Below are positions 1 through 61,821 of a stretch of DNA of 64,000 bases, piece after piece (the first letter of the stretch is position 1; each line of letters begins with the position of its first letter). The position numbers and the translations under genes are program-made. The stretch is from positions 1,045,661 to 1,109,660 of the forward strand of contig NW_018406103.1 of NCBI RefSeq assembly GCF_002113885.1, written 5' to 3'. The notes beneath the pieces were generated by a model, which saw only the letters and a program-made list of their open reading frames with translations, was not told the origin of the DNA and searched no databases. The stretch is from Mizuhopecten yessoensis (Eukaryota).

Positions 1-780
1 ATCCAGGTGCTTGTATCATCAATAGTCTATATCTGTCACTATGTCATGTCGGAGCAATGCTGACCTCTGATCACCAAAAACCTCCCTTTTTCCAAGGTAA
101 GAAATGTTTATGGGCATGGTTGCTTGTATTTCTCTGCAATTTTTCCCCCAGATTTTGTTTCACTTTGCTGATTAAAATCAAGTAAAGTTACCAGGAACAT
201 AAAAAAAAACATATCATCAACAAATACATTTGGATATGAACACACAGTTAAACCTTCCAAATCTGTTTCATTTTTCAAATCAAGTAAAGTTACCTTGAAC
301 ATGCAAGCAACAAAAACATCATCAACAAATACATTTGGATATGAATGTACAGTTCAACCTCCATTTACAACCTTGCGTTCCGCCAACATACAATTGTATT
401 CCAAGGTACTTTTTCCTCATGTTCTTATGAAAATTCCTTCATACATTTCCCAAATTTAAATTGCAAAACCCCTTTATTACCCTAATATTTTTCTTGTCAG
501 ATGATTTCAGTAAAATAGAATTTAATAATATTGCTGCATCAATATCTCCAAATTTGTAATCTGATTTGGAAGATATACACTTTTGAGTTTAGTCATTCAC
601 AAAATAAAAATTCAAAAACTGAAAATTGGCAGAGATATATGATGCAATGCATCTGTTTGAAAATGATAAAAAAAGGTTCATTTACAGCATCCATACTTAA
701 ATACCATAGTATTATTACTTTTAATTATTTCGAGAATTGTCTGTATTGCATAGTCTCAGAACTTTGGTCCAGTAATCTGA

Positions 781-3700
781 TCAAAATCCATAGGCCTTTG
801 GAAAGTGGATTAATGTTTCAGCCTCTGAAAAGAACAAGGAGCATCTCATAAATTAACTTTTCCTAAACAAGAAATATCTAGCATAGCAAGAAGCGATATT
901 TGTAAAAAAATACATGCACTTCCATGACAACCAAATAAGCTATGAAGTAGTGGTGTTTCTAAACATTTTCTTCAGGTTAGTAAGTATGGATTATGAGAAG
1001 CTCTTTTTACACAACCGATACAACTTTTTATGTGACGTTTCGATGACTAGTACGATATGTACACTGTCACCATCATCAGACAAATGACCAATGACGCGTA
1101 TGTACACTGTCACCTTCATCAGACAAAGGGCCAGTGACGTGTATGTACACTGTCACCTTCATCAGACAAATGACCAGTGAAGCGTATGTACACTGTCACC
1201 TTCATCAGACAAATGACCAGTGAAGCGTACGTACACTGTCATCTTCATCAGACAAATGACCAGTGAAGCATATGCACAAAAAGGTGTAAAATGTGTACGA
1301 GTTGTCCACAAAAGTAACGGTGTTCCAATTAATCAACCTTGTTAACTATTTGTTAGTTAGGCTGATAAATTGATTATAGAATTCATGATTGATTTAAGTC
1401 GGAATACTTGCATGTAGACATTATGGAGTTTTCTGTAGAGTTATTCATGATTTCAGGCCTAACCTCCTTGCTAGATACTAACAATACCTTTAAGCAACAG
1501 AAGTATCCTGATACCTATTGTATACAGGGAAATGTTCCTCCCAGTTTAACTTACGCCTTGTTCGCCCAATGAGCGTGAATTTGTCATGACAGTTAATATT
1601 ACATACAATTTACAGTATTTACATGTTATGGGCAAAATTTACACTGGGCAAAGATGGACTTTATTGGCAAAGGGCGAATATTTACACTGGGGGAATATTT
1701 ACACTGGGGGAATATTTACACTGGGCGAATATTTACACTGGGCGGAAGTGTCCGGGTATACAGTATTTCAAGCTCCTACTGCGGCATTGTCATTCGCATA
1801 ATTTTACTTCCAAACCTGTTCATGGTTACCAAGGACTATAAATAAATAACAGATTAACCCTTTCACCCCTATGTAACTTTAGTAGACTCTTAAATGCATT
1901 GATATGGAGGGGTCCATTATGGTCTACAGTTGTGAAAGGGTTTAAAAAATGAAGTGTTTAAATGGAGGCGATTTATTGAACTCTGGTCACATTATTTATT
2001 AGCAGTCACAACATGGGGGATCTCACTATAAATTTCCTTAAAACAATTATCGATCTTATTATAAAATCTTATGATTTTTTTGGGAAATACATACACTATT
2101 ATAAATTTAAAATTGCACTCATTATAGGGACTCCCCTGATAATCTATGCAATCAGCCAAGCCCGGCAAAAGGACTATGTACTGTACGTAACAGAAGCAGA
2201 GAAGTCCTCGACTGTCGGGTGTAACTGGCTGTATTAGACCTGGGCACAAAACACACACAATAATACTTTCCTATTTGTACATGAATATACTCAATAATCA
2301 CATTCTTGAAAACAGTAAAAATAAATCCTTTTTTTTAAAAATATTTTTATATTATTATGTAATTTTTGCAAAAAATAAAAATAATTCCTATGTAAACTTC
2401 TTGGCCCCTTCCGATCGCCCTCCCACGACAAAAAACACCAGAATGTGGGGCAACGAAACCAACACATAAGAGCGACTGGCGCATATGGGTTCGCCCAAAC
2501 CGCCACATCCACCAACCAGTTCATAAAATTCCAACAGAACATCAACACTTTGTCGACTGTTGGTTAGTTACGCTAATAAACTGATTAATTGACAACAGCA
2601 AATCATGTTCAATGACCAAATAAATGTAAGATCTTCCTGTAACGATTCCTCTACTGCAAAGAGTAGTTAACGATAAAGGAAAAGGGCATCGTATTCTCCC
2701 ATAACTGTTCGTAGAATTGATCAGGCCTACCTTGTTGAGGCAGTAAATTGTCTAAAACAAGGCCATAAAACTGTTCTGGTCTGCCGTCTGTTGACGTTCC
2801 CTGGCTATTTATTCTGTATGTCCTGAAATATTAGATAGAACCTCAAAGTACTGGCAAGCTAGTGTTATACACAGGTTTGCATAGCACGACCAGTGAAGAG
2901 TTTAAATGTGATGGTTTACTTCACTGGTTGTGCTACTAAGTAAATCAAATTTGAGATATATCTCAGTTGTTGATGTGCCTTGCATGGCCCTGTTCTGCAC
3001 TTTGAGAGAAGGAATTCAGTCAAAATTGCAAAAGATATACCGGTATATTTGTGGCAGATTTTAATTGTACAAAGGATAATGGTAGCTTTCTAGCTTTGAG
3101 CTATAGGGAATTTCCCTTTAGCTCAGTGGTAGAGCGTCTGACCAGGAACCTAGGATCGCAGGTTCGATCCCCGTTAGAAGCACACTATTCTCTTTCCTGT
3201 TACATATGTAATAATACTAGATTTAACTTGAAGCATGTGCTTCAAAGATACTCCTGCTCCCCGCATATCTACAAAGTTTTGAGTCCATTCATGAAACAGA
3301 GGCTTAGATGTGCTGCAGAAACCTGTAATTCACTTAATTTAGTACTCGAGGTCAAGGTTAAAGGTTAAATTGAGGTCACAGTGACCTCATTTTTGGATGC
3401 AACACATCGCTTTTCCATGATATGTTCAGGAAACTATTTTGTGAGAACTTGTTAAAGTCGAAGGTCAAATTGAGGCCACAGTGACCTCGTTCTTGGATGT
3501 GACACACTGCCATTCAACAATATACCTATATGTTTCTACAAAGTTTGATGCCCATTCATGAAATAGCAGCTGAGTTTTGGTCCAGAAATCATCATCAGCT
3601 CGGCCAGATGCATGGACGAAAGGACAAAGTGAGTACTATATGTATAACTCTGACTTCATCACAGCGGTGGAAGAAAAAGAGTTATTGCTATCGCAGTACA

Positions 3701-6700
3701 CTCACCATCCCATGTGTTGACCACAGTGCGGACACTTGGTTATCCACCAGCTGTAATTAGGGAACCACGTGTCATCACTGTATTTCTGAAAGATAACAAT
3801 ATAACAATGACCATCAAATATAGTTCTGTTGTTGTATGGAAATCAGCATAGTTTTGACCCTTTCACCCCTAAAGTCACATTTACACCTTACCAAATCAAA
3901 GAATGGTTAAGTCCAGTTCAGATATGTAGGGGTGAATGAGTTAAATAATCAAGATCCGGAAATTTTTTTTAATGAAAAGACTGCCATGTCTACGACTATT
4001 ATATACATGTACTTTGGATATTCATTTAATTGTTTGTCATATTGCCTCATGTAGTGACACTTTTAGTGAACCTTGGCTGTGCTAAATTATTTACCCCTAC
4101 AGACACATTTGAACTCTTCCAATTCAAAGATTGGAATAGTTCATTATTAAATTTCAGGGGTGAATGAGATAATTGCTGGTGGTTTGAATTCAGAGGTTCT
4201 TGGTCACCAAATCATCAAATATGCTGAAGTTATTCAGACCAGTATTCATTTTTCATTATTTTTTTTAGGTCTTTAAACCTTTCACCCCTATATAACTTTA
4301 GTCGACTATACCATGCATTGATCTGGTTGAGTCCATTTTGGTCTACAGTGGTGAAAGGGTTAAATTTGGTTTTGATACCCGCCTATAAAGTAGAGACGGT
4401 ACACATATATAGTTGTCTTTTTTGTTGGTCTATCAATTTGTTTGCATACGGTGGACAAGTTATATAAACACTGGATGGAGTTCTTATTGTGATTTATATG
4501 TCCACAATTTGTTCAAATCCCTACAGTTGTTCTTGGGAAGAAATTGAAAATGTATGACTTACAGATTAAGATCGCAATAGTTATACCCTACATCCAGTGT
4601 CCCATATGTTGGGCAAGACCAGGATATTTCAGTGCATTTGATTGAGATCAAATTATTCAGGTCTGAGGTGAAAACTAAGGTTGGTCATGGTACCTGAAAG
4701 AATTTTTTTTGTGTCGTGTACACAGATATATATAGTAGAGGACTTGTTAGTTAAGACTTACTTGTAAATCTTCTAAAACATCTGCTTTTCTTGTTGTTAT
4801 AACTTCAAAAGAATTATCTGAAAAATAAGTGAAAAGTATACATATGTACTGAGCAGAAGAGGTCATTCGTTTAAGTAAAGCACAGGTTCTTGTGCTGAAA
4901 ACATGCTGAACAAGCACTGGTTCATGTGCTAAAAACATGCTGAACAAGCACTGGTTCATGTGCTGAAAAATGCTGAACAAGCACTGGTTCATGTGCTGAA
5001 CAAAAAGTGAACAAGCACTGGTTCATGTGCTTAGACTATATAAAGTACATACTGAACAAGCACTGGTTCATGTGCTGAAAACATGCTGAAAAAGCACTGG
5101 TTCATGTGTTGAAAACATGCTGAACAAGTACTAGTTCATGTGCTTATATACTATATATAGTACATACTGAATGACACTGGTTCATGTGCTGAAAACATGC
5201 TGAACAAGCACTGGTTCATGTTCTGAAAACATGCTGAACAAGTACTAGTTCATGTGCTTATATACTATATATAGTACATACTGAACGACACTGGTTCATG
5301 TGCTAAATACAAACTGAACAAACACTGATTCATGTCCTGAACATTTCCTGAACAAACACTGGAACATATGCTTAACACATATTAAACAAGCACTGGTTCA
5401 TGTCCTGAATACATACTGAATGTTTAACTGGTTCATGTCCTGAATACATACTGAATGTATCACTGGTTCATGTCCTGAATACATACTGAATGGAGCACTG
5501 GTTCATGTCCTGAATACATACTGAATATAGCTTTGGTTCATGTCCTGAACATTTACTGAACATACACTGGTTCATGTTCTAAAAGCATACTGAACAAACA
5601 ATGGTTCATGTCCTGAATACATACTGAATGTAGCAGTTCATGTGCTTATATACTATATATAGTACATACTGAACAACACTGGTTCATGTGCTGAAAACAT
5701 GCTGAACAAGCACTGGTTCATGTGCTGAACAAAAAGTGAACAAGCACTGGTTCATGTGCTTAGACTATATAAAGTACATACTGAACAAGCACTGGTTCAT
5801 GTGCTGAAAACATGCTGAACAAGCACTGGTTCATGTGCTGAACAAAAAGTGAACAAGCACTGGTTCATGTGCTTAGACTATATAAAGTACATACTGAACA
5901 AGCACTGGTTCATGTGCTGAAAACATGCTGAACAAGCACTGGTTCATGTGCTGAAAACATGCTGAAAAAGCACTGGTTCATGTGTTGAAAACATGCTGAA
6001 CAAGTACTAGTTCTTGTGCTTATATACTATATATAGTACATACTGAACAACACTGGTTCATGTGCTGAAAACATGCTGAACAAGCACTGGTTCATGTGCT
6101 GAACAAAAAGTGAACAAGCACTGGTTCATGTGCTTAGACTATATAAAGTACATACTGAACAAGCACTGGTTCATGTGCTGAAAACATGCTGAACAAGCAC
6201 TGGTTCATGTGCTGAACAAAAAGTGAACAAGCACTGGTTCATGTGCTTAGACTATATAAAGTACATACTGAACAAGCACTGGTTCATGTGCTGAAAACAT
6301 GCTGAACAAGTACTAGTTAATGTGCTTATATACTATATATAGTACATACTGAACAACACTGGTTCATGTGCTGAAAACATGCTGAACAAGCACTGGTTCA
6401 TGTGCTGAAAACATGCTGAACAAGCACTGGTTCATGTTCTGAAAACATGCTGAACAAGTACTAGTTCATGTGCTTATTTACTATATATAGTACATACTGA
6501 ACGACACTGGTCCATGTGCTAAATACAAACTGAACAAACACTGATTCATGTCCTGAACATTTCCTGAACAAACACTGGAACATATGCTTAACACATATTA
6601 AACAAGCACTGGTTCATGTCCTGAATACATACTGAATATAGCTTTGGTTCATGTCCTGAACATTTACTGAACATACACTGGTTCATGTTCTAAAAGCATA

Positions 6701-9700
6701 CTGAACAAACACTGGTTTATGTACAAAAAAACATACTAAATAAAGCATTGGTTCATGTGGTGCAAACAAACTGATCATGACACTGGTTTATATACTGTTC
6801 TCATAATTTTTTAATAACTTTGAAGTAAGCACATTTGTGTTGGTCATAAGAAGTGACCATATCGTTTGAAGGTTTTATTACTTACCATGTGGATTTTTAA
6901 ATTGTTGAATAAGAATTTCTGGGACACCACCAAATGTAGAATTTCTTTGTCTGAGTGCCACTTTGCTTGGAATGTTGATCAAGTTTGCAGCTCGAACGAC
7001 TTCATGTCCACACTTCCGACATAGCAGGTAATCTGAAAACAGAAGTATTACTGTAAATATCCATAAAAATGTTCCTTACAAAATCATGCAACAACGAAGC
7101 TCCTGATAATGAGACAATTTTAATATATTGCATTGTCAATTTGGTTTGGTTTGTTTGCGGTTTACATCCTATATTTACAGATATGGTCTAGGTTTTGGTG
7201 GTGGAGGAAAGCCAGAGTACCCAGAGATAAACCACCGACCTGCGGCCAGTACCTGGCGACTGCCCCAGGTATGTAGGCCTCGAACCCACGACCAAGTGGT
7301 GATTGGCTAATGGTAGCAGAACTCGGCCACCATGGCCCTCATTGTTGTCAAAGGAGGCTGGGAATTAATATTAGTACTATGGTAGCTCTATATATTGTAT
7401 TCATGAGGCAAAGGGCTACAGTATCAGCCACCAATATCTTCACTTATAACACAGCACCCTGGCCTTGGCAGGTGTGGATGTGACTTTCTGTCTTTATAGA
7501 ACAACATACACTGGATTGCTAAACAGCCTTGGAAAATAGTAACAATTACTGCTTCCTACTAGTGTTGGTTTGTTTGTGTTTTACATCCTATTAACAGCTA
7601 TGGTCATTTAAGGATGTGTCAGGTTTTGATGGTAGAGGAAAGTCGGACTTCCCGGAGAAAACCAACGGCCAGTACCTGGCGACTGCCAAACGTAGGTCTT
7701 GAACCCGCGACCCAGTGGTGGAGGGCTAGTGGTAGCAGATGTCAGATGCCTTAACCACTTGGCCTCCGTGGCTGCTCACTAGTGTTGGATCATTAACATG
7801 ATGATACCATACCTATCACGATACATATGGTAACAGAAGATGCAAGAAAAAAAGAAATGTTGCAATTTTTTAATGGCAAATTATTACAACTGGAAAAAGA
7901 CTCGGTCCAAAATGGGCATGACTTTGAAGTTTCACACAATTCATGCCTTTCGACGTGCATGCCGAGCTGGAGCGGTCAATAGCCATGTTGGAACCGATAT
8001 GAGTAGACTAAATTCAGACACGACAAAATTCTGAAAATATTATAAGTGTATTGTAACTTCCCAAAAAAATATTGTGTTGGTATACTATATTGAAAATATT
8101 GTTATATATCATCGGTCATCAGGTCTGAGAGACAGTCTACAGTGGCGGATCCAGTGGAGTTTTTTGGGCTTCAGGAACCCACCCCCACCCCACCTGGAAA
8201 TTTGGAAACCCCCCTTGATAGGTCTCTGGATCCGACAATGGTCTACATAGTTTTGATTCCTCCAGAAAAAGAGGGAGGGGCACTTATGGGGAATGCTTAT
8301 TACAGTGAATACGGTCACAACATAAACAACGACCTGTGTTACATTGGCAGGGAAAATCCTCGAATTAGAGAGCAGTGGGCCATATTTAGCAATTTTTAGT
8401 CAATATTAAATTAAGAGTTAATCTAGTTTTGAGGGGTCAATGGCCCCATGACCCCCTCCAGGACTATCCCTGCATTGGCATAGCTGTCAAAGCTCCCTCA
8501 TTAGGAGACTGACTCCCTCATTTTGACCAAAATTTACCAATCTCCCTCGAAACTTCCTCATTAAAGTCCAACTCACACAAACTCAAAACCTACATTCTTT
8601 GGTCAAATGATCTCCTACTTACTGCAGGGTGTGTGTAATGATCATAACAGATGTGTCTGAATAAAGTTAATGCTTTTTGGAGTTATTTTGATGCATAAAA
8701 AGGGAAAGATAACTTGAAACACTTTCCCTCTCATTGGAGGCTTCAGAGGTTGACACTTATGCATCGGTGCCAAGAATAGGGCCCCGAAAATTACAAAAAT
8801 TACTCTGATTTGCTCTAAGGAGCATTATTGTTACCCTGGAAACACCCAAGATGACTTCTTTCTGGGAAGTAAGAGGAAACTAGAGTTTGGTAGTTAAAAG
8901 CCTCTCATTTGAAATTTCCAGTAGGAAATTGAAACTAACCGCAAGGGACCAGTCTCTGGACCAAACCAAAAAGCATCATAAAGGTTCAACAAGCCCCCCT
9001 GAAAGATGCTAGTTATATAGTTTCCCTTAACAGGTCCAGTACACTCTGCCAATTGAGCTATATAGCTTTAAAGACCTATATAGCTATATACACCTATAAA
9101 TTATAGCTGTATTGAGCTATATTTTCTCATATTTCAATTTTCATTAAATTAAAGCAAAGTCGCATAAAACAATATGGTTTTTGGTAATGGTGACTACAAA
9201 AAGCATACAGTTAGATGTTTATTTTCATTTTTCATAAATGTAAAATTTCTGATTTTTTCACATCATTATTTTATAAAAAGAATACTTATATTTAATGTCT
9301 TTTGTTATCAACCTTATTATACAATCTTCTTTTAAAAGCGACTTTGTTTTGTTTTCCTTAAAAATGAAAAATGAGTTTTTAATAGGACTTACTTTGGGTG
9401 TGAACTTAAGGGTGACTTTAGCCTCTTACAGGGGTTTGTAGAACCTTAAGGACATTCTAATATGACTGCCACACCAAACCGTTTATCAAATACAATAATG
9501 CGTTCCGTTAGCATTAAAAAATCCAGTGTCACATAATAATCCTCCTTCAATATTTTTCAAACATAATAAAGGTTACATGCACACTAAATTTCAGAAAAAA
9601 TATTCAATAACTGATGAAAAAACTCACTATTCATATGTTCATTTTCCAAGCTGAATATAAGTCACAATTCAGGAAAAAATCCATTTAAACTTGTAAATAT

Positions 9701-10798
9701 CATAAGGTTGGATGTCCATGGAGATGCATTTGTCGAGAAAAATGTAAGAAAATGTGTCAAATCTCCAGAATAATGGCATATATATTCCCCTGAATATATC
9801 ACAACTGAGCACTAGGCAAACAAGGCTGACTGAGGTTGGAAAAAATCATAAAAAGAATGTGAGATTTTACCTGTACACCATTCACTACAGGTTCTCACTC
9901 GGGTAATATGACTCGACTTGTATCAAAAGTCTTGTTAACTTTATGAATTATTGTAAAATATCCAATCAAAATACGTCATCATTCTCGAGATTTGAAGCAT
10001 TTTCTCACATTTTCCTCGACAATAGTCACTACATGGACACTTCAGGAATGCATGTACAGGTAAGTTTTTTCATTAATTTCATTATTCATTGCAATTTTGC
10101 GACATTCAAATTCCGCATTCAAATTTACTTTTCAAGACAAAATCAACAATATTTTCGACAAATCATTTCTGCAAAGGTAATTATTGACATTGTCTTGACA
10201 TGAGTATACTAAGCGACTTCCATACTTTATTCATTTTGAGGAAAGTTAAAAGCCCTTTACGAAAGATTACTTGGGTAATATGGATCGACTTGAGAGTCTA
10301 TATAAAAATAACTTATATAAAATACCAGGAAAGAAATGCACCGCATATTAAATAAAATCACCACTTTCATAAAAATTGCTTCTTTGGAAATAAATATTTT
10401 TGATCACCAGTCATAAATCTCTACTTTAAAGTAAAAGTACTATTAAGGTCTGTGCGGCAGCCTACATTCCTCCAGAAAAAGAGGGAGGGCACTTATGGGG
10501 GCAGGGGAAATGCTTATTACAGTGAATACGGTATATTATTCCGTTACATGGATAAAACGTCAAACCCCTGTGCTAAATCAGTTGTAAGTGAATCTTGCAC
10601 GACTAACTCGAAAAGTTTTATTTTCACAAAGCGATTATCATGAAACATTTTGATATGACAATCCCAGACAATTGTACCTGTTATCTCATCAGCAACAGAC
10701 CCAACACTGTCCAAACTAAAATATACGACAATTAACGTCAAAAGAAAGTGTAGAAAATTGGAAGCCGACAACAAGCACCTGTTACTGGAGGCTGCCAT
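781..10798 (-). CDS. Secreted cereblon-like CULT (thalidomide-binding/yippee-fold) domain protein, 179 aa; exons complement(10678-10798, 6886-7032, 4762-4817, 3706-3785, 2731-2822, 781-824)
   Basis: Six GT-AG exons with matching phases (1,1,0,2,1), total 540 nt, ending in TGA at 781-783. Translation: MAASSNRCLLSASNFLHFLLTLIVVYFSLDSVGSVADEITDYLLCRKCGHEV...QFKNPHDNSFEVIT...DDTWFPNYSWWITKCPHCGQHMGWTY...FYGLVLDNLL...PKAYGF. Two CxxC zinc motifs, NPH, WFPxYxW, HxGW and FYGL are CULT signatures. Hydrophobic N-terminus; no LON domain. Confidence 0.9.
1030..1084 (-). ncRNA. Minimal type I hammerhead ribozyme (Penelope-like element type)
   Basis: Minus strand reads UGU-CUGAUGA-U-GGUGAC(agugUACauaucGUACua)GUCAUC-GAAA-CGUC/ACA. 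This has the complete catalytic core, a 6-bp stem II, palindromic ACGU minimal stem III, a GUC cleavage triplet and a short stem I (UGU/ACA). Confidence 0.65.
1057..1276. repeat. 43-bp tandem repeat, ~5 copies
   Basis: Unit gtatgtacactgtcaccttcatcagacaaatgaccagtgaagc; tcatcag recurs at 1073, 1116, 1159, 1202 and 1245. Confidence 0.9.
1517..1766. mobile_element. MITE-like element with internal 18-bp tandem repeat (gggcgaatatttacactg, ~5 copies)
   Basis: Imperfect terminal inverted repeats tattgtatacagggaa / tccgggtatacagta; tandem units at ~1630-1743. Confidence 0.55.
1854..1945. mobile_element. ~90-bp piggyBac-like MITE (TTAA-flanked); related copies at ~3854-3944, ~4088-4172, ~4273-4363
   Basis: ttaaccctttcacccct...gtgaaagggtttaa inverted termini. 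The internal sequence is closely similar at 4273-4363 and more diverged in the other two copies. Confidence 0.7.
3115..3204 (+). mobile_element. tRNA-derived SINE (head plus ...ctgttaca tail)
   Basis: A box tagctcagtggtagagcg and B box ggttcgatcc. The tail tctctttcctgttaca is shared with the copy at 21525-21625. Confidence 0.65.
4878..6790. repeat. 34-bp minisatellite with 46-bp variants, filling intron 2 of the CULT gene
   Basis: Unit actggttcatgtgctgaaaacatgctgaacaagc with period 34 (4916 to 4950); higher-order re-duplicated blocks. Confidence 0.95.
7138..7340 (-). mobile_element. tRNA-derived SINE with V-domain-like core; same family at 7565-7775 and 16817-17042
   Basis: Shared ggttttggtggtggaggaaagcc.gag.acccggaga...ccagtacctggcgactgcccc...gaacccgcgacccagtgg and a (caaac)n tail on the minus strand. 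Confidence 0.75.
7565..7775 (-). mobile_element. SINE, second copy of the V-domain-like family
   Basis: Aligns by eye with 7138-7340 and 16817-17042. Confidence 0.75.
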
Positions 10799-36900: not shown

Positions 36901-39900
36901 GAGTCAGTGGAGCCTTAATATAAGTCGTACATATAAGATGAAGGACTTTGTATGGCTTCGACCTCACACAAATCCATACATACTGAAAACCTCCCCTTGA
37001 ACTTTCAAACCACGTACAGTTTACTCTCAGAAACTACAGAACGCATCTGCTTGAACAAAACTTAACATCAGATGGAAATGTGTTGGCGTAACCAATACGT
37101 CTTAAGGGGAAATATAAAGTTTGTTCAAATTAGTTGTTTATGGTTGCTAAAACCACTGTGCAAAACCTTGTCAAAATAGGCTGAATTTCAATTTCCATTG
37201 TCGGAATCGCAGATTGGTCATTTTGAACTGAAATGTATAAATATCACATTCTTTATAAAAGAGATGTCGACTGATTTCTTTCCTTTTGTTGAACATGCAG
37301 TATATTGTTGTGACAGCTGTCAGATGATATCAATCGGGAATATTGCGTATACACAAATCGTACTCCGTAAGTTATTGTTTGGTTTGAATTTGATTGAGAC
37401 AATGCTCATTGTCTAAGTTAGAATAACAAATTGGGTAGTCTTTATCATAGGGATTTTCTCCCTAAAACATGTAAAATTACGCTGAACACCTTACTTTAGA
37501 TCCAAATATAGCGGTAACAAAATATCAGGTCCCTGTGGTCTATCTAACACCTGTAGCCTGTTTGTCTATACATGCACGGGATTTAACAAGCAGAGGGTAT
37601 GTTTTAAACATTGTTAACATATTCTTCATCTCCTGGCGTCAAAGTTAATCTAAAATTATTGTTAACGGAGAAATGGTCTTTGAATAGATCGCTATACATA
37701 TGCATCTGGTAGTGTATCAGGCATGACGGTAAATACTCTCGTTCATGTGACCGAATGAACCCATATAATTTCATTGAGGTCACAATAATCTATGTTCATG
37801 CCGTACAATACCCATTTTAAATGTTAAATATACACTTTATTACTTTACAACAATGATGAATCATAAAACCCTCTTTTTGGCTCGGATGAAAGTGAGTGGG
37901 GGTCTTAATTTGGGAAGACTGATATAACTGGAAGTCATTTTTCCGCGCCCTCAGCCTCGTTTTAGATTCAATATTATATATGGCCGTCGCCTGCGATAAG
38001 AGTATTTCTGTCCTTTCTCAGATTTCTGTTGAAATTCCTTAGCATGAAAACTGCGATAATATCGTCTCGTGAATATAATATAAATTTAGATATTAAACAA
38101 ATACTAAAATGATGTTGTATGTGAATTCGTTGCAGATTGTTCCACTATGTTAATGAGAACCATCTCTTTACGAAACCTACGTACTCCGCTTTCATCGCCT
38201 TGCTTGACAACTTCGACAAAAACACAGCTCATTCGGAGCATACGTCATCGACGGAAACTGCCGAAATTGACCGATTCATTACGGAAGTGATGAAAACTTC
38301 GGTGATGTCGGAAACTTATAGATTTCTGCATGGCAAAGGTAACTGGAGAGTTGTATTGCATTCCGACAGAGCAATAAAACATTCATTAAGGTAAACTGTA
38401 CCAACAAGTCAGATCATATTATTACCATTGTTACCTTTCAAAAGACACATTCCATGAAAATCACATGTTACCATACATGTTGTTAGAAATTTGATTATTT
38501 GAAAAGATAAAACAAAAACAAAACAAAACCATAAACATTGCAAGGCTCGAACTCAGAATCTAAACATTACACATTACACCAATGTTGCCAGTTTCAAAAA
38601 GTGTGTCCAATTTAAGGACCAAAGATCATATTAGTAACGTATCAGTAGACGGTACTCTAACCTTGATAAACAAGATCGGCCAAATAATTAATGAATCTAA
38701 TAATTATAACTGGTATTGTCTCTTGATTGGCTAAGACGATCATTTCAACATTAAATGTAATTTGTAGAATACATACCCCCTAGACCTCTTAGTATTACAT
38801 AATAAATGAGTATCTAAAAAAAAAGAATTGTAAATATTCTAATTATTGACCCATAAAATTATGCTGCCGTGTAATACATCTAGGTGAAGTGGAATATATA
38901 CATACAGTAAAACCCCACTTCCTCGAACTCGATTTACTCGATTTCTCGTTTACTCGGTTACCCCTCATTCGTCGAACAGTTCGTTTGGTCCCGACCGAGT
39001 TCGTACATATTCTTTGTATATTCCTTGAATACCCCGTACGAGTTCGAGTTAGCGGGGTTTTATTGAATATGTATTGCAATTTAGTATTTAGCGGTTGTAA
39101 TTAACTTAAAGTTTGTCTTTACAATATGTTTGACCTATTTATTATAAGGCTACACCACATCAACGACCGCCTTCCGGGATACGTTAAAGAGCATATGGTT
39201 TACCCAGTATTCTCGATCCGGAACTTCCCACGGAAGTAACGGATTCGAGCACGTGTTCGTCGGAGAGACAACTAGCACAGATGTTTCCGGTTTCCATAAC
39301 TGGATTCAATTCTACCTCGAGGAGAAACTAGGGCACATCAATTATCTTGGCTACATCTACTCCAATCAGGTAACTTCGATTTCACGTATACCTACGAGCA
39401 GACAAATCGAGTTATGAAATGGACTCTATCTTTGTATTTGATATCCTTGTCTCAATTATGATCCTCTTAATTTATTTAAACTGCTTAAGGTAGAAAGTTG
39501 GTATGTCTTTTCGGTATAACATCTCGGAAGTTGAAAATAATGTTGATATTTCCGTTTGGTCTACAGCCTCGAAAGTTGAAAATAATGTTGATGTCTCTGT
39601 TTGTTAGAGAGTAACGGAAGTTTGGGAAAAACTTGTTTTGTCTGTTTGAACGTTGATATTTCCGTTTGATCCACAGTCCCGGAAGTTGATAATAATGTTG
39701 ATTTTCCCGTTTGTTCCACAGCCTCGGAAGTTTATGGTAATGTTGATTTTCCCGCCTGTTCCATAACTCGGGAATTCTATGGTAATGTTGATTTTTTTCG
39801 TTTGTTCCACAGCCCCGAAATGTGATGGTAATGGTATTTTTTCCGTTTGTTTCGCAGCCCCGGAAGTTGATTGTAATGTTGATTTTTTAATTTGTTCCAC

Positions 39901-42169
39901 AGCCCCGGCAGTTGATGGCAATGTTGATGTTTCCGTTTTTTCCACAACCCCGGAAGTTGATGGTAATGTTGCTTCTTCCGTTTGTTCCACAGCCCCGGAA
40001 ATTGATGGTAATGTTGATCTTTCTTTTTGTATCACAGCCCCGGAAGTTGATCGTAATGTTGATTTTTTTCGTTTGTTCCCTAGCCCCTGAAGTTGATCGT
40101 AATGTTGATTTTTCCGTTTGTTCCCTAGCCCGGGAAGTTAATTGTGATGTTGATTTGATCGTTTGTTCCACAGCCCCGGAAGTTGATGGTAATGTTGATT
40201 TGTTCTTCTTTCCACAGCCCCGGAAATTGATGGTAATGTTGATCTTTCCGTATGTTCCACAGCCCCGTAAGTTGATCGTAATGTTGATTTTTTTTCGTTT
40301 GTTCCCTAGCCCCTGAAGTTGATCGTAATGTTGATTTTTCCGTTTGTTCCCTAGCCCGGGAAGTTAATTGTGATGTTGATTTGATCGTTTGTTCCACAGC
40401 CCCGGAAGTTGATGGTAATGTTGATTTGTTCTTCTTTCCACAGCCCCGGAAATTGATGGTAATGTTGATCTTTCCGTATGTTCCACAGCCCCGTAAGTTG
40501 ATCGTAATGTTGATTTTTTTTCGTTTGTTCCCTAGCCCCTGAAGTTGATCGTAATGTTGATTTTTCCGTTTGTTCCCTAGCCCGGGAAGTTAATTGTGAT
40601 GTTGATTTGATCGTTTGTTCCACAGCCCCGGAAGTTGATGGTAATGTTGATTTGTTCTTCTTTCCACAGCCCCGGAAATTGATGGTAATGTTGATCTTTC
40701 CGTATGTTCCACAGCCCCGGAAGTTAATGGTAATGTTGATTTTTCCGTTTGTTCCACAGCCCCGCCCCGGAAGTTGATCGTAATGTTGATTTTTCCGTTT
40801 GTTCCACACCCACAGAAGTTGATGATAATATTGATCCTTCCGTTTGTTCCACAGCCCTGGAAGTTGATGTTAATGTTGATTCGTTCGTTTTTTCACAGCC
40901 CTGGAAGTTGATTGCAATGTTTATTTGTTCGTCTTTCCACAGCCCCGGCAGTTGATGGTAATGTTGATCTTTCCGTATGTTCCACAACCCCGGAACTTGA
41001 TGGTAATGATGATTTTGTCGTTTGGTCCACATCGACATCCCTGGAAGTTGATGGTAAAGTTGATTTTTCCGTTTGTTCCACAGGCACGATGGTTGATGGT
41101 GATGTTGATTTTCCCGTTTGTTCCACAGCCCCGGAAATTGATGGTAATGTTGATCTTTCCGTATGTTCCACAGCCCCGGAAGTTAATGGTAATGTTTATT
41201 TTCCCGTTTGTTCCACAGTCCCGGAAGTTGATGGTTATGTTTATTTTCTCGTTTGTTCCACAGTCCCGGAGGTTAATGGTAATGTTGATTTGTTCGTTTG
41301 TTCCACAGTCCCGGAAGTTGATGGTTATGTTTATTTTCCCGTTTGTTCCACAGCCCCGGGAGTAGATGGTAATGTTGATTTTTTCGTTTGTTCCACAGTC
41401 CCGGAAGTTAATGGTAATGTTGATTTGTTCGTTTTTTCGACAGCCCCGGAAGTTGATAGAAATGTTGATTTTTTCGTTTGTTCCATAGCCCCGGATGTTG
41501 TATTTGATGTTGATTTGTTCGTTTTTCCATAGCCCCGGATGTTGATGGTAATGTTGATTTGTTCATTTGTTCCATAGCCCCGGAAGTTGATGGTAATATT
41601 GTTTTGTTCATTTGTTCCATAGTCCTGGAATTTGATGATAATGTTGATCTTTAAGTTTGTTCCGCAGCCCCGGAAGTTGATGGTAATGTTGATTTTTCCG
41701 TTTGTTCCACAGGCCCGGGAAGTTGGATGGTAATATTGGATTTTTACCGTTTGTTGCACAACCCCGGGAAGTTGGTGGTGATGTTGATGTTTTCGTTTGT
41801 TCCACAGCCCCGGAAGTTGGTGGTGATGTTGATTTTTTCGTTTGTTCCACAGCCCCGGCAGTTGATGGTAATGTTGATCTATTCATTTTTCCACAACCCC
41901 GGAAGTTGTTTGTAATGTTGATTTGTTTGTTTGTTCCGCAGCCCCGGAAGTTGGGTGTTCACTTTACTTGGTATAATAAACCCAAACCCTTGACCACCCT
42001 TCTGGTCGGTACCAGTCCGGAGTTTGACCTCGCCGTTTTGACAACCTGTTTCTTGGTCCGGAAAAACACCAATTGTCACTTCGATATGGCGGGAAACTAC
42101 CTCACGGTGAAATCCTATGACGTCAGCTATGTCCATGGTGATCAAGTGGCTACAGCCTATTTTAATTAA
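33939..42169 (+). CDS. ENDOU: Poly(U)-specific endoribonuclease (EndoU/XendoU/PP11 family) with signal peptide, 287 aa; exons 33939-33990, 36282-36441, 38136-38338, 39149-39369, 41942-42169
   Basis: Five exons in consistent phase (1,2,1,0; 864 nt). Motifs IWNDDTN, LFHYVNE, PTYSAFIALLDNF, catalytic GFEHVFVGE and SGFHNWIQFYLEE, WxxxxK...GTSPEFD, C-terminal VATAY. The N-terminus MAGRNSSILILISLYLHSSSFVLG is signal-like. Confidence 0.92.
34965..35995 (+). mobile_element. 5'-truncated non-LTR retrotransposon (CR1/L2 group) 3' end in EndoU intron 1
   Basis: IQIDAARIVTGLP / EIGWVPLRTRR / FPSTTKIWN / HCRLRNRASSLN / CGNPCEDSYHF are typical of the post-RT region of LINE ORF2; AATAAA near 35987. Confidence 0.75.
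35514..35703. mobile_element. 190-bp palindromic MITE nested in the LINE; inverted partial copy at 34600-34740
   Basis: tattccgtctttgcgtattgc...gcaatacgcaaagacggaata termini; CACC direct repeats on both flanks. Confidence 0.8.
38902..39066. mobile_element. TACAGT-terminated (Tc1/mariner-like) MITE; related fragments ~31440-31512 and ~32040-32110
   Basis: tacagtaaaacccc...ctcgaactcg / cgagttcgagttagcggggttttattg inverted ends. Confidence 0.6.
39500..41953 (+). repeat. ~45-bp minisatellite (~54 copies) consisting of the EndoU intron 4/exon 5 junction; includes a ~226-bp higher-order repeat at ~40030-40720
   Basis: Unit atggtaatgttgatttttccgtttgttccacag|ccccggaagttg. The last copy supplies the real acceptor (AG 41940-41941) and the first four codons (PRKL) of exon 5. 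Confidence 0.93.
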
Positions 42170-54669: not shown

Positions 54670-56760
54670 TTGTCAGTGAACTAAATGATTTATCAGTGAA
54701 CAGAATGTTTATCAGTTGAAATGAAATTATTTATCTGACGACAAAATGATTTTTCGGTGAATAAAAACATTTATTATTGAACAAAATTACTTGTCGGAAC
54801 AAAACGATTCATCATTGAACTAAATTCTTTATCATTGAACTACATGATTTATTATTGAACTATATAATTTATTATTGAACTACATGATTTATTATTGAAC
54901 TCCATTAATTTATTATTATTGAACTACATGATTTATTATTAAACTCTATAATTTATCATTGAACTACATAATTTATCATTGAACTACATGATTTATTATT
55001 GAACTATATAATTTATTATTGAACTACATGATTTATTATTGAACTCCATTAATTTATTATTATTGAACTACATGATTTATTATTAAACTCTATAATTTAT
55101 CATTGAACTACATGATTTATTATTGAACTACATGATTTATTATTGAACTCTATAATTTATCATTGAACTACATGCTTTATTATTAAACTCTATAATTTAT
55201 CATTGAACTACATGATCTATTATTGAACTATATGATTTATCATTGAACTATACGATTAATCATTGAACTCTATAATTTATCATTGAACTACATGATTTAT
55301 TATTGAACTCTATAATTTATCATTGAACTAAATGATTTATCATTGAACTCTATAAGTTATCATTGAACTAAATGAATGATCATTGAACTAAATGGTTTAT
55401 CATTGAACAATATAATTTATCATTGAACTATATGATTTATCATTGAACTATATGATTTATTATTGAACTATATGATTTATTATTGAACTAAATGATTGAT
55501 CATTGGACTAAATGATTGATCATTGAACTATATGGTTTATTATTGAACTAAATGATTTATCATTGAAATATATGATTTATCATTTAACTAAATGATTTAT
55601 TATTGAACTATATGATTTATCATTGATTTTCATGATTTATCATTGAACTTCATGATATATCATTGAACTTTATGGTTTATCATTCAACTATATGGTTTAT
55701 CATTGAACTAAATGATTTATCATTGAAATATATGCTTTATCATTTAACTAAATGATTTATTATTGAACTATATGATTTATCATTGATTTTCATGATTTAT
55801 CATTGAACTTCATGATATATCATTGAACTTTATGGTTTATCATTGAACTGAATGAATTATCATTGAACTACATGATTTATCATTGAACTAAATGATTTAT
55901 CATTTAACTATATGGTTTATCATTGAACTAAATGGTTTATCATTGAACAATATGATTTATCATTGAACTATATGATTTATCATTGAACTAAATGATTGAT
56001 CATTGAACTAAATGATTTATCATTGAACTATATGGTTTATCATTGAACTAAATGGTTTATCATTGAACAATATGATTTATCATTGAACTATATGATTTAT
56101 CATTGAACTATATGATTTATTATTAAACTATATGATTTATCATTGAACTAAATGATTGATCATTGAACTAAATGATTTATCATTGAACTATATGGTTTAT
56201 CATTGAACTAAATGATTTATCATTGAACTAAATGATTGATCATTGAACTAAATGATTTATTGAACTACATGATTTATTATTAAACTATATGATTTATCTT
56301 TGAACTAAATGATTGATCATTGAACTAAATTATTTATCATTGAACTATATGATTTATCATTGAATTTCATGACATATCATTGAACTTTATGGTTTATCAT
56401 TGAACTGAATGAATTATCATTGCACTATATGGTTTATCATTGAACTAAATGATTTATCATTGAACTGAATGAATTATCATTGAACTATATGGTTTATCAT
56501 TGAACTAAATGATTTATCATTGAACTATATGATTTATCATTGAACTATATGATATATCATTGAACTAATTGTTTTATGACAAAACAAAAATATGTATCAG
56601 TAAACGTATTTATTTATCAATATATGTAAATATTTTAGAAAACAAATATGTTTTACCATTGAATAAAACGATTTATTACTAAACAAGATATTTATCATTG
56701 AACATTGAACAATGAAATTATTTTTCAGAGAACAAATATGATTTATCAGTGAACAAAATG
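54670..56760. repeat. 20-bp minisatellite (tgatttatcattgaactata), ~90 copies in the core plus degenerate flanks
   Basis: Strict 20-bp periodicity over ~54830-56570. Confidence 0.95.
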
Positions 56761-56843
56761 AATAATAAGTTAACATTGATCAAAAGTCGATATCTTGCAA
56801 TTTGAAATGATCAAAAACCGGAAGTTGCCCCTACCGGATTTGT

Positions 56844-59800
56844 TTAGAAGTAAAAGCATCGGCATTTCGCGTCAACACAGTGGTAGTTTCCGCGTCCGCT
56901 ATGGCAGTTGGCGCTGGAAGGGCAGTCACTCTTGTCGGAACATCCTACAAAAGTTACAAACAAAAATATATGAATATTCAAAACATAGATTAAAATAAAA
57001 CAATGTTGTGAAAGTTATACACTGAACATGCTCTTATTACCGTACAATCAGCAGATCAATCGGGAACCGTCGGCACTTTCCGTAAACGAGAGTACCGACG
57101 GTTCTCGATTGTCAGCAGAGTAAATTGTTCGTCTGGTTAGCTAGTCTCGTTCAACCAGACTCTTGTTGTCTGCGCAAGCTACACCGAAAAATTACAAGTG
57201 ATCAAGCGTCTGGTTGAACGAGACTACGCCGGTATGAAACGAGGTCCTTCGGAAGTCATAAAAGTTTTTTGGAGGGACTAATGCCCCGAACCTGATCGCC
57301 CTGATCAGATGCAAACAACACTTTTTTTCATAATTTGAAATGGTCAATTTTATTTGTGTTTTTCTTTTGTTTTCTTATCTTTTGTAAGTTATAGCAGTCT
57401 TAAGGGATACGCGTACCACTGCCAAAACTGTGACTATGCTTCAGAAACAGTTTTCCAGCATGACTTTAGCTGTGCTAAGTCATTTTGATAAGAAAGCCAG
57501 ACCTTGCGGAACTTTATAAAGCAAAAACAAAACGAAACAAGCAAAATAGAATCAAAAAGACATTTTGTGTGTAAAACTTCAGCGATGCTAGACCAGGTTT
57601 CGAACCCTTGAGACAAGATTGTTAAACATGTATACCGTTGCTCTACCGAACTAAGCCACTTGGCCAACGGAAGTGCCCGACCCTCTTGTGCTTCAATAAA
57701 ATCCAAAACGAAATGAAGGGGAGGTTACTCTATATACAAAAATCACAGTGGAATTCTTCATTGTTTTGTCTGCAATGGTACAGGCATTCTTACGAAGTAC
57801 TTTTGCGTGTTCATTGCAATATGGTTTACGACACACGACAACTTGTCATCTAGTCCGAATTATTCTGAAGTTTATCGACTTTTTTCATATCGGTCTGTCG
57901 TCGATTAACGTCAGAACTCCGGCCCTCTATAATAGGCGGGAAATATGCGGCCCGCCCCCGGAGCGCACTTCAAACTGATATTTAGAAACAAATCGTCACT
58001 TTCACACACATGTCGAACATGGATCGAACGATCTATTCTTTATGCACAAGATGAACATACATAACATGCCTCAAACAACCAATACAATCACTAAAAACAT
58101 ATTTTTTCAAACTTACTCTGTTTTACTATAGTTTTTTGATAGTCCCGCCTTCTAATGCCACGTGACTAAAATATCGCCGGCCTACGTCATAACGTTGGGA
58201 AATACCTTCGGTAACGCGAGATCTCGGCAAGTCATGTGACATTGCTCATGGCCTAATTTCTATTAAACACATGGGTTGGTATAGAAAACGTTAGAAAATA
58301 CTTTTCGTAATGATCTTTGAAACATGTTATTGATACCATCTAGTGCATAAAGAATAGATCTTTCGATCCATGTGCGACATGTGTGTGAAAGTGACGATTT
58401 GTTTCTAAAATATCAGTTTGAAGTGCGCTCCGGGCGCGGGTCGCAGTCTCCCGCATATTATAGAGGGCCGGAGTTCTGACGTTAATCGACGACAGACCGA
58501 TATGAAAAAAGTCGATAAAACGTCAGAATAATTCGGACTACTTGTCATCTACCTACCCTACTTAAAAGAAAAAAAATAGGGTGCCATCTTGTAATTTTGT
58601 GGTATATGATTGTAATTTTGTAAGGAAAGGGCTTGACATAGGTTGCATTATGGCAATAAAATATGTTTAAATATATACTTATGGTTCAATATAATAGGAC
58701 GAATAGAATTAATCGTATACTGCTAAGAAATTCCCTAAATTTTGTGAGCAATATGATTCGTGACCATTTTTTATTTTCATAACACAATGTAGTATATTGA
58801 GACAAAATGTAACATATGGAGACAAAATGTAGCATATTGAGACAAAATGTATCACAATGAGACAAAATGTAACATATGGAGACAAAATGTATCACAAAGA
58901 GACAAAATGTAACATATGGAGACAAAATGTAGCGTAGTGAGACAAAATGTAGCATATTGAGACAAAATGTAGTATATTGAGACACAATGTAGCATATTGA
59001 GACAAAATGTAGCATATTGAGACAAAATGTAGCATATTGAGACAAAATGTAGTGTAGTGAGACAAAATGTAGCATATTGAGACAAAATGTAGTATATTGA
59101 GACACAATGAAGCGTAGTGAGACAAAATGTAGCATATTGAGACAAAATGTAACATTCTGAGACAAAATGTAACATATTGAGACACAATAAGACAAAATAT
59201 AACATATGGAGACAAAATGTAACATACTGAGATAAAATGTAGCATATTGAGACAAAATGTAACATACTGAGACAAAATGTAACATATTGAGACAAAATGT
59301 AGCATATTGAGACAAAATGTAGCATATTGAGGTAAAATGTAACATATTGAGATAAAATGTAACATACTGAGACAAAATGTAACATATTGAGACAAAATAA
59401 GCATATTGAGACAAAATGTAACATATTGAGACAAAATGTAGCATATTGAGACAAAATGTAACATACTGAGACAAAATGTAACATACTGAGACAAAATGTA
59501 GCATATTGAGACAAAATGTAACATACTGAGACAAAATGTAGCATATTGAGACAAAATGTAACATATTGAGACAAAATGTAACATATGGAGACAAAATGTA
59601 ACATATTGAGACAAAATGTAACATATTGAGACAAAATGTAGCATATTGAGACAAAATGTAACATACTGAGACAAAATGTAACATACTGAGACAAAATGTA
59701 ACATATTGAGACAAAATGTAACATATTGAGACAAAATGTAACATATTGAGATAAAATGTAACATACTGAGACAAAATGTAACATACTGAGACAAAATGTA

Positions 59801-61821
59801 ACATACTGAGACAAAATATAACATATTGACATTCGGTACGAAGAAAACACAACACCACATAAAAAACGTGAAATCCTCTAAGTTATATAGATTTATCTAA
59901 ACGGTTTACCTGCAAGCCACAAATTTTCAGGTTATATTATAATTACTATTCCGCATTTACTAATTAAATGAATATTTTGTTGTACTTACCGCTACCGGTG
60001 TTGGTGGTCTGGGCCTCGCAGTAACATGCACGGTTATGGCAGGTAAGGGCGTGGTTTGGGGCACACATGGTTAGGCCATTTTCACAATCAGAATCACTTC
60101 GGCACCCCTCTGAGTTTACGCAGACTGTAACGGAAGATAAACAATGTTACTATTACAATGTAGTGACCTCGACATGTTTTCCTTAAATCCAAATATTCCA
60201 AATATAATATCTTTGGTTATACTAATTTATTTTTCGTTGTTTTACTAGTTCACTAATCATTAAAATACGGTATTTTCATTTATCAACGATTTATTCAAGT
60301 TAATAATTGGTTTCGTTATAATAAAAATGACCTTAACGGGTTTTTTCATCATCTTTTTATTTATTAAAATTGACTGAAAAGCTGTTTAGAAGATAACTAT
60401 TGATAGGTTAACATTTCGTTTAATTCTGAATTACTCGGTCGTTCATATTATTTACCATATAAGTTTTCTACCGATTACTTTAAGAGGTATGACCTGTCTG
60501 AGCTTGATATTTCCCGAACAGAAGGGGGATATGACATTCAGAGAGATTATATCACCGGCCTAAACCTTTATAAATCGCAGTTTGCAATTATTTTATTCTT
60601 TGCATTATGTATCTGTAGCAGTTAAAATGGAAGTTAAAGAAAAGCGAAAAAATAACCCTAAAAATGTATATGTTCAATAATTGTGTCTATTAGGCTACAG
60701 TTTTATTTTTTATTTTTACACTTAACCACAGGGAGATGAAAACTTATTCATATTCACATTTCAACAATAGTTTTCAACACGCACGGATTTTTAAATGTTA
60801 TTGACGTTATTGAGTTATTGACGGTTATGCTTAAATCGGCTAATCATAATGGCTTCGGGTAGAATGAGAGTTAAAAATAAAATTGAGGCTTTTAAGTCGC
60901 GTCGCTCCTCTCCTTTGTAATCTTTAAAGGACAGGTATCAGCCTAGCGATTGGTCAGTTTCTTTTTACCTGAGACCAATCAAACAGCTGTCTGCGTGCCT
61001 TCAATTTTGCTATGACATATTCCAGGGGTGCAGAGAGCGAAAGTGAGCGTAACCACTAGATATCGAGGATGGCAAAGGTCTAGATTTTTCATGTTCTGTA
61101 TGGTATCCATATAAAGTCAAGCACATAGAAAAAATAGAAGGGGTACAGAAAAGAGCCACCGAAAAGTTTTCTGGATAACAAAACATAACCTACCAAAAAC
61201 GACTAAAAAATCTTACACTAGTGTATATACGAGAGCGATTCATGTTCGTTTATCAAACTGTGGAACAAGGTAACGGAGAGAACAGCACCAGAAGACACTC
61301 ATTTAAGATATATACCCAAAAACAAGCTTTAACATCTAAAAGAAAGAACTATTTTACAGTCAGAGTGGTGCACATTTGGAATAATTTACCATCGGAGGTG
61401 GTAAACGCACGACCCCTAAATTCATTTAAGGATAGACAACAGAAATGCTGAAAAAATCAGGAAATATTATATAACTTTAAAGCACCGATTTAAAAGCGGA
61501 TTTCAAGTTCGGTGCAATACAACGATATAGTCCAGTGGGGAGAACCTGTAGAGGTCCGGTACTTGAAACTAACTCTAAGTAACTCTAAAATGTGATTTCA
61601 TAGTTGCAAGGCCGTTAAGCAATTACTTATTTATATAAGTTTTTAATAAAAATGCATAAAGACAAACATGCAACAAAATTTTGAGAAATAAATTAACATT
61701 CGAATTAAAATAGATAAATTATATAAAATACAAGATGGACGCATAAAACTCCATATTTGTACAAATATGGACACTTACCAGCAACAACAGCCAAAATGGC
61801 GAGAGCGATGAAGGTCCTCAT
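56844..61821 (-). CDS. Serine protease inhibitor cvSI-2-like (MEROPS I84-type, 12-Cys secreted peptide), 92 aa; exons complement(61779-61821, 59990-60124, 56844-56944)
   Basis: MRTFIALAILAVVAVCVNS|EGCRSDSDCENGLTMCAPNHALTCHNRACYCEAQTTNTGSGCSDKSDCPSSANCHSGRGNYHCVDAKCRCFYF*. Signal peptide plus two 6-Cys modules ending in CxC; HCVDxxCRC tail typical of cvSI family; both introns phase 1 with strong GTAAGT donors. Confidence 0.88.
57142..57226. mobile_element. 85-bp MITE with 19-bp perfect TIR
   Basis: tagtctcgttcaaccagac / gtctggttgaacgagacta. Confidence 0.75.
57851..58540. mobile_element. 690-bp foldback/MULE-like non-autonomous transposon with ~197-bp TIRs and 9-bp TSD
   Basis: 57851-58047 is the reverse complement of 58343-58540; cttgtcatc at 57842-57850 and 58541-58549. 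Confidence 0.9.
58785..59830. repeat. 20-bp minisatellite (gagacaaaatgtaacatatt), ~52 copies, in cvSI intron 2
   Basis: Strict 20-bp period; accounts for the three long repetitive minus-strand ORFs. Confidence 0.95.
61085..61590 (+). mobile_element. CR1-type LINE 3' fragment in cvSI intron 1
   Basis: VWYPYKVKHIEKIEGVQKRAT...TRRHSFKI...RKNYFTVRVVHIWNNLPSEVV; short tandem tail (taactctaa). Confidence 0.75.

Follow-up and report, generated by a model that had tools for sequence, protein, structure and literature searches.

Minimal hammerhead ribozymes (min-HHRs) are known from metazoan Penelope-like elements (Cervera and De la Pena, 2014, PMC4209133). In the accessible part of that study they combine the conserved core CUGANGA...GAAA...UH with a short helix I, a long helix II that has an unpaired base between positions 9 and 10.1 and a G10.1-C11.1 pair, and palindromic positions 15.2-16.2; helix III is lacking, and the motifs mostly occur singly in truncated copies with inverted neighbours nearby. 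Single min-HHRs are reported there not to cleave, and dimers to have low activity. A similar arrangement has been described for the Poseidon elements of Anolis (Frangieh et al., 2024, PMC11167929; Craig et al., 2021, PMC8557442), in which, as far as the accessible text of the two papers goes, a reverse transcriptase (RT) is followed by a C-terminal GIY-YIG endonuclease, the hammerhead lies in the pseudo-LTR, copies have two 3' end points set apart by a 30-40-bp AC-rich tail, and inverted 5'-truncated partner copies occur. The Poseidon hammerhead is described as cleaving only with the element's protein, with no read ends in RNA-seq, in the corresponding part of the later paper (PMC11167929).

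Tandem arrays within such sequences also have precedents. Transposon segments lying between direct repeats of 5-10 bp give rise to minisatellites, according to the accessible text of Ahmed and Liang (2012, PMC3389668), who cite the Alu case of Jurka and Gentles. Non-LTR retrozymes consist of tandem repeats that come from Penelope pseudo-LTRs and hold hammerhead sequence; an active one has two or more units in a row, every one of them containing a complete hammerhead (bioRxiv 10.64898/2026.07.22.740005, accessible part). Both kinds of sequence that meet at the locus described here, the minimal Penelope hammerhead and the transposon-derived minisatellite, are already known. We consider the locus, with a probability of about 0.85, to be a truncated Penelope end that carries a minimal hammerhead and a slippage-born minisatellite, likely with no effect on the host gene. 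This is close to the retroelement relic that a preliminary description of the DNA had offered as its fallback, and which we judge to be the best reading; the locus is probably an ordinary one, one of hundreds of truncated Penelope ends, with a minisatellite added.

A minimal hammerhead core in a truncated Penelope end

Reading of the sequence confirmed a minimal type I hammerhead core on the minus strand, from 1082 to 1031, and every coordinate that the preliminary description had given for it was correct. Its parts are as follows:

1031..1082, minus strand: complete minimal type I hammerhead, with a 3-bp stem I, a 6-bp stem II plus 4-bp extension, and no stem III
1082-1080, minus strand: stem I 5' strand, UGU
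1079-1073, minus strand: CUGAUGA
1072, minus strand: unpaired U between CUGAUGA and stem II
1071-1066 and 1047-1042, minus strand: stem II arms GGUGAC and GUCAUC, with one G.U pair
1041-1038, minus strand: GAAA
1038-1035, minus strand: palindrome ACGU
1034..1036, minus strand: GUC triplet, with the predicted cut between 1034 and 1033
1033-1031, minus strand: stem I 3' strand, ACA

The likeness to the min-HHRs (PMC4209133, accessible part) extends to the conserved core, the lack of helix III, with GAAACGUC and its ACGU as the palindrome, the long helix II, with U1072 as the unpaired base and G1071-C1042 as the G10.1-C11.1 pair, a helix I that is short by sequence, and the mostly single motifs in truncated copies with inverted neighbours; the location in the pseudo-LTR of an RT plus GIY-YIG element is matched as well. 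Helix I has three contiguous pairs here as against four to five in the Schistosoma families and two in D. virilis, and tandem amplification of the 5' half, as found here, is not described for min-HHRs in that part of the paper. A search of both strands of the window, the whole 64-kb stretch of DNA analysed, finds GAAACGTC a single time. An Rfam search (covariance models, e.g., RF00163), which had been proposed as a check, did not bear the assignment out, returning no hammerhead family match at 1-5000 (E<=5) or 1000-1130 (E<=10); the Rfam hammerhead models presumably expect stem III.

The core lies within a short insertion with the following features:

958..1311, minus strand: 5'-truncated 3' end (pseudo-LTR and tail) of a Penelope/Poseidon-type retroelement, 354 bp
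958..990, minus strand: AC-rich tail of ~33 bp, typical of Penelope-like insertions
1312..1324, minus strand: likely upstream copy of the target-site duplication, 13 bp, 11 of them identical
945..957, minus strand: likely downstream copy of the target-site duplication, 13 bp

The 13-bp flanking near-repeats are likely a decayed target-site duplication, an equally good match being found in 34 of 5000 random window pairs. A search of the same genome with 960-1110 gave 2167 first-look candidates, and the 40 of these that were scored yielded 47 matches, the best of them 92-94% identical. The locus copy itself shares 92% identity with other members of the family in 956-1107 and 91% in 1233-1313, and differs from the family majority by ~6% (median of copies 3%). 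Both core halves are kept in 661 genome copies, the number of matches to a two-part core pattern whose reversed control gave none, which places the count above chance; a stricter pattern of exact core and stems found 389 copies (reversed control 0). The ~33-bp tail is present in 50 of the 86 family ends examined, 33 stop before it and three are of other kinds, and inverted truncated partner copies occur at many family loci, so that the two 3' end points and the partner copies both have their counterparts in Poseidon (PMC11167929, PMC8557442, accessible parts).

The Penelope-like origin proposed in the preliminary description, and the search for a parent family that it suggested, were borne out by these 661 copies and by relatives with RT and GIY-YIG coding sequence. 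At three loci (L015, L024, L030), sequence coding for the RT thumb and GIY-YIG lies directly upstream of the family end, and a YVDD motif and thumb could be recognised by eye upstream of GIY-YIG in L030 and L118, the same domain order and the same hammerhead location as in Poseidon. A frame at L119, which stops just before the hammerhead, scored 24.6 bits with Pfam GIY-YIG (cut-off 22.6); this domain was above cut-off in one of three proteins in one scan and in none of three element pieces in another, and RT was not recognised by Pfam in the broken element pieces. The translations of L024, L030 and L118 have no CX2-5CxxC zinc-finger linker between RT and endonuclease. Neptune and Nematis have this extra linker, in contrast to Poseidon (PMC8557442, accessible part), and domain order and linker, rather than a tree, suggest assignment to the Penelope/Poseidon clade. 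No full-length or intact element was found, the longest relevant open frames having ~180-340 codons: a protein search for one returned broken frames only, a read-through pattern for a longer element had no matches, and nine longer family loci have a common stretch of at most ~1.3 kb. Two same-strand cores at L124, considered as one element, turned out to belong to two distinct truncated copies on either side of a simple repeat.

This core was found in a single family. A search for other families with the core and different stem I bases gave five matches against one for the control, and three of the five were by eye decayed copies of the same family. Helix I has the same three pairs throughout the family, and a 10-copy alignment contains no two-sided change in stems I and II. 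Core columns changed less often (7/602 versus 396/7899), a difference that we set aside because the copies had been picked by their core sequence.

A 43-bp array and its recurrence in the genome

Upstream of the complete core, the 5' half of the hammerhead is part of a tandem array, with the following features:

1056..1278, minus strand: minisatellite of five 43-bp units (TRF period 43, 5.2 copies, 92% matches)
1271..1278, minus strand: upstream slippage word TGTGCATA
1056..1064, minus strand: downstream slippage word GTGTACATA, located in loop II; where a copy has one unit, the two words are 43 bp apart

Each unit holds the stem I 5' strand, CUGAUGA, the 5' arm of stem II and part of loop II. 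CTGATGA thus starts five times, at 1251, 1208, 1165, 1122 and 1079, with a spacing of exactly 43 nt, and GAAA and the cut site are found in the last unit only and are missing from the other four. The region therefore has five units and one GAAA/GUC half, in agreement with the earlier claim that the 5' half alone is repeated four extra times. The unit variants at the locus are nearly star-like, five being single and one shared, with a divergence of 0.037 for units, 0.068 pairwise and 0.057 for the flank. No description of a minisatellite made of half-hammerheads turned up in the literature searched; subscription papers or supplements may contain one.

The same unit, in the same register, is amplified on 13 contigs including this one, with 2-31 units per array. 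Nine of these were found with an exact junction pattern, a spaced-core pattern added C83, C808 and C4568, and L013 on C262 has two units; C5591 and C76750 turned out to carry unrelated repeats and were left out of the count. Among the 14 arrays examined, the terminal core is broken in nine and intact in five, and one array has a core change in all of its 16 units. Variants common to several units, often in blocks, occur in 11 of the 14, and units are less diverged than flanks in 13 of the 14, with block-wise shared variants in the long arrays. Shared unit variants are the mark of local expansion, a mark that is weak at the present locus with its one shared variant. Local expansion at several loci of one family is likewise described for transposon-derived minisatellites (PMC3389668, accessible part). 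As the same array occurs on 12 other contigs, mostly with broken cores, no gene-specific explanation is needed.

A tree was built from family ends without the extra units, keeping the 43 of 86 that have both upstream flank and tail, four arrays among them. The four array loci need four changes on this tree and none of the bootstrap trees (0%, 43 rows) joins them; the tree is so poorly resolved, with 2 of 40 branches well supported, that a single origin of the arrays would also be compatible with it. At L117 and L067 both partner copies have arrays.

Origin of the array

In single-unit copies the unit is bounded by near-identical words that match at 8 of 10 bases and are spaced by 43 bp. Slippage or unequal exchange at such words leads one to expect reciprocal loss, and an exact 43-bp deletion at them was indeed found at three loci. 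The word recurs a third time 71-73 bp further upstream, and a 71-bp array at one locus starts from this copy and contains no ribozyme sequence. We suggest that a 5'-truncated Penelope/Poseidon end was inserted by target-primed reverse transcription and left a 13-bp duplication, that the unit was then duplicated for the first time through slipped-strand mispairing, or through unequal exchange, at the GTGT(G/A)CATA words, and that subsequent growth would have been that of ordinary repeat DNA. In this way the 5' half of the family's own minimal hammerhead may have become a five-unit minisatellite, predicted to be near-inactive in the host pre-mRNA. Duplication between 8-10-bp near-direct repeats is also described for transposon-derived minisatellites (PMC3389668, accessible part), with the difference that a ribozyme 5' half is what has been multiplied here, likely by accident, given where the words lie. 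The arrays thus call for caution: half-ribozyme arrays that look designed recur through an accident of sequence, and the reciprocal deletions are found in the same genome.

We regard it as unlikely that the arrays are seeded at insertion, with the telomerase-related RT copying the 43-nt stretch, realigning on the repeated word and recopying it, and DNA turnover editing the product later. New insertions made by Penelope RT, the sister of telomerase, would then be born with telomere-like half-hammerhead arrays, and the nearly star-like locus copy, in which one of six variants is shared, would fit as one such product made at insertion. Both partner copies on C4568 are arrayed (4 and 8 units) and have private variants in common, as are both tandem ends on C76576 (6 and 6 units), and tandem repetition is considered as possibly triggered during retrotransposition in the accessible text of Ahmed and Liang (PMC3389668). 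However, L062 and L068 each have an inverted partner, belonging to the same insertion, with just one unit, and variants shared between adjacent inverted arms may be due to gene conversion. Arrays on 13 contigs outnumber the three deletions, a rough ratio in that the patterns differ in sensitivity, yet exact deletions and the 71-bp array at the same word make ordinary slippage enough, and the lower divergence of units than of flanks, together with the block-wise variants of the long arrays, also speaks against seeding. If the element's telomerase-related enzyme did make the arrays, this would reveal repeat-addition behaviour in Penelope RT.

Predicted folding and the host gene

The preliminary description had envisaged that the single GAAA/GUC half could pair with any of the five 5' halves and thereby modulate pre-mRNA cleavage, and neither part of this is upheld by folding. 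For 1320-960, the predicted ensemble has stem II paired with unit 5, the nearest, at p ~0.73, with unit 1, the farthest, at ~0.18 and with units 2-4 at <= 0.001; stem I, which has three contiguous pairs by sequence, has p <= 0.001 for all five units, and CUGAUGA is paired with upstream sequence. Monomer folds of hammerhead type are uphill of the ensemble by 7.4-15.0 kcal/mol; for circularly permuted folds the difference is 15.7-23.7 kcal/mol, and the active homodimer lies 14.3-18.5 kcal/mol above two monomers. These are nearest-neighbour energies, which ignore tertiary contacts, Mg2+ and proteins, and since single-unit family copies score alike, being also uphill by 5.8-12.6 kcal/mol as monomers and 13-27 as dimers, they do not tell active copies from inactive ones. 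For the 76-nt ribozyme region, the predicted fold is no better than that of shuffled sequences (z -0.80).

A minimal hammerhead without stem III is predicted to need a second GAAACGUC to cleave, and in a related element its protein too; a second GAAACGUC is not present in this pre-mRNA. The extra 5' halves add no GAAACGUC and therefore provide neither a stem III nor a dimer in cis, so that swapping one 5' half for another cannot give stem III and modulate cleavage. These folding predictions suggest that the hammerhead in this pre-mRNA would cut rarely or never, and the published min-HHR and Poseidon results (PMC4209133, PMC11167929) point the same way.

The host gene has the following features around the insertion:

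825..2730, minus strand: host intron, the last coding intron of a CULT-domain gene (GT-AG; junction reads 824/2731)
781..824, minus strand: coding portion of the final exon (13 codons plus stop), ahead of the 3' UTR (translation; RNA depth)
2731..2821, minus strand: penultimate exon (junction reads on both sides; translation)
3705..3787, minus strand: exon with the CULT (cereblon thalidomide-binding) motif W..W....C..CG.H.GW (phmmer against PDB cereblon chains, best E 2.1e-05)

The claimed location, sense within the final intron of a cereblon-like gene, is in keeping with the matched CULT exon and with splicing of the intron in three of the four RNA runs, and the cut site, put at ~200 nt upstream of the final acceptor, was measured at 209 nt on the sense strand. 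Pfam did not recognise CULT in the 27-aa exon, and a 48-aa exon at 6887-7030 had no significant PDB match. A putative first exon at 10677-10797 encodes a hydrophobic stretch in translation, so that the gene is likely of the secreted, CULT-only animal type, as in the accessible part of PMC4287342, rather than cereblon proper.

RNA was examined over 300-4000 in four runs from four studies. The 825-2730 intron was spliced normally, with 0, 2, 2 and 9 reads across its junction, and over this interval the runs gave no sign of a later junction. The unique intron sequence has near-zero RNA depth, and none of the 50 reads over the element at 1072 carries the locus base, which means that the reads over the element stem from other copies. 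No pile-up of read ends was seen at 1033/1034 in the four runs, a weak test at an exon depth of 0.5-6, with standard libraries that miss 5'-OH ends and animals that may be without this insertion. In one run six read ends pile up at 1025, where the locus copy diverges from the family, and we did not interpret them as cleavage.

A regulatory role of the array is unlikely. It seems very improbable to us that an active intronic ribozyme is at work here, with the upstream halves, or the two GUC-forming junctions through a permuted type III fold, tuning cleavage of the host pre-mRNA. Such tuning would find an intact core in sense orientation, 209 nt from the last acceptor, and a unit 1 that has a change giving a fully Watson-Crick stem II and takes up ~18% of the predicted ensemble. 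It would also find GUC-forming changes (ACGUC or GCGUC) at two unit junctions, 1138 and 1095, in two of the five units, which are seen in none of the other 13 arrays and may allow pairing with the 3' half in a stem III of 4 bp. However, the permuted fold at these junctions has a 2-bp stem I and lies 15.7-16.1 kcal/mol above the ensemble, units 2-4 hardly pair with the 3' half (p <= 0.001), and the window has a single GAAACGTC. The other arrays are mostly broken, and the five intact ones of 14 are no more than the rough family share (661 of ~2167 candidates) would give; the intron is spliced with no end pile-up, a weak argument. Domesticated intronic hammerheads such as HH9 and HH10 of amniotes are single-copy, conserved across species and active as monomers, and have a stable stem III. 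Unlike these, the locus copy is one of 661 and has no stem III. Greater importance would attach to the locus if the two junction changes did yield a functional permuted ribozyme and the host pre-mRNA were cut by it.

It is scarcely tenable that the locus represents a non-LTR retrozyme in the making, whose tandem ribozyme repeat would give a transcript that is cut into monomers, and these would then form circles and be mobilised by the parent element. The array resembles retrozymes in being a tandem repeat from a Penelope pseudo-LTR with hammerhead sequence (bioRxiv 10.64898/2026.07.22.740005, accessible part), but its 43-bp units are incapable of self-processing, four of the five being without GAAA and cleavage triplet, which makes release of monomers impossible and puts the array outside the retrozyme definition. 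The locus amounts to a small natural experiment, in which a spliced intron tolerates an intact minimal hammerhead on its sense strand.

Junctions and terminal units of the half-hammerhead arrays

At two unit junctions of the window array (1138 and 1095, minus strand), a change creates a GUC after a palindromic word, and such GUC-creating changes were found in none of the other 13 arrays examined. The terminal unit at L067 (G000:C76576), another locus of the same element family, is joined to the 3' half via a different microhomology, 41 bp apart; here repeat sequence substitutes for part of loop II and the core is kept.

Arrays also lie at two further loci of the family. L117 (G000:C4568:336100-336800) is an inverted insertion with arrays in both arms (4 + 8 units), and the two arrays have private variants in common, either because the array was already present in the template or through conversion between the arms. 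In the old copy L115 (G000:C83:2600-3720), another array, made of ~22-bp units, comes before the 18 units of 42-43 bp, and a tail segment is duplicated. A 43-bp repeat with CTGATGA at G000:C76750:98236-98624 is unrelated to the family's array; the sequence after it resembles a box C/D or hammerhead context.

A branch-point word in the last coding intron

The window copy contains a perfect TACTAAC branch-point word (976-982, minus strand) ~155 nt upstream of the acceptor, created by a departure from the family base at 979 that is common to this copy and L013, another family locus. As several AG dinucleotides intervene before the acceptor, the word is probably not used as a branch point.

The host gene and other repeats in the window

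The putative first exon of the host gene encodes a hydrophobic N-terminal stretch, which suggests that the gene belongs to the secreted CULT-only family rather than being cereblon itself. This exon and further sequences noted in the window are as follows.

10677-10797, minus strand: putative first exon
4878-6788: minisatellite in another intron of the host gene, 34-bp unit, 1.9 kb
1854-1942: short repeat
3119-3183: tRNA-like sequence (Rfam tRNA 19.5 bits, under cut-off)
39652-41953: 45-bp repeat, ~51 copies, without indels
54673-56761: long minisatellite, 20-bp unit, ~104 copies
58782-59829: long minisatellite, 20-bp unit, ~53 copies

The intronic minisatellite has higher-order periods of 113, 261 and 374. 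The 45-bp repeat has a period divisible by 3, and its AT skew is strong; it may be coding. The tRNA-like sequence is probably a tRNA-derived SINE, and its many RNA reads originate from other copies. RNA depth within 300-4000 is highest over the short repeat and comes entirely from other loci.
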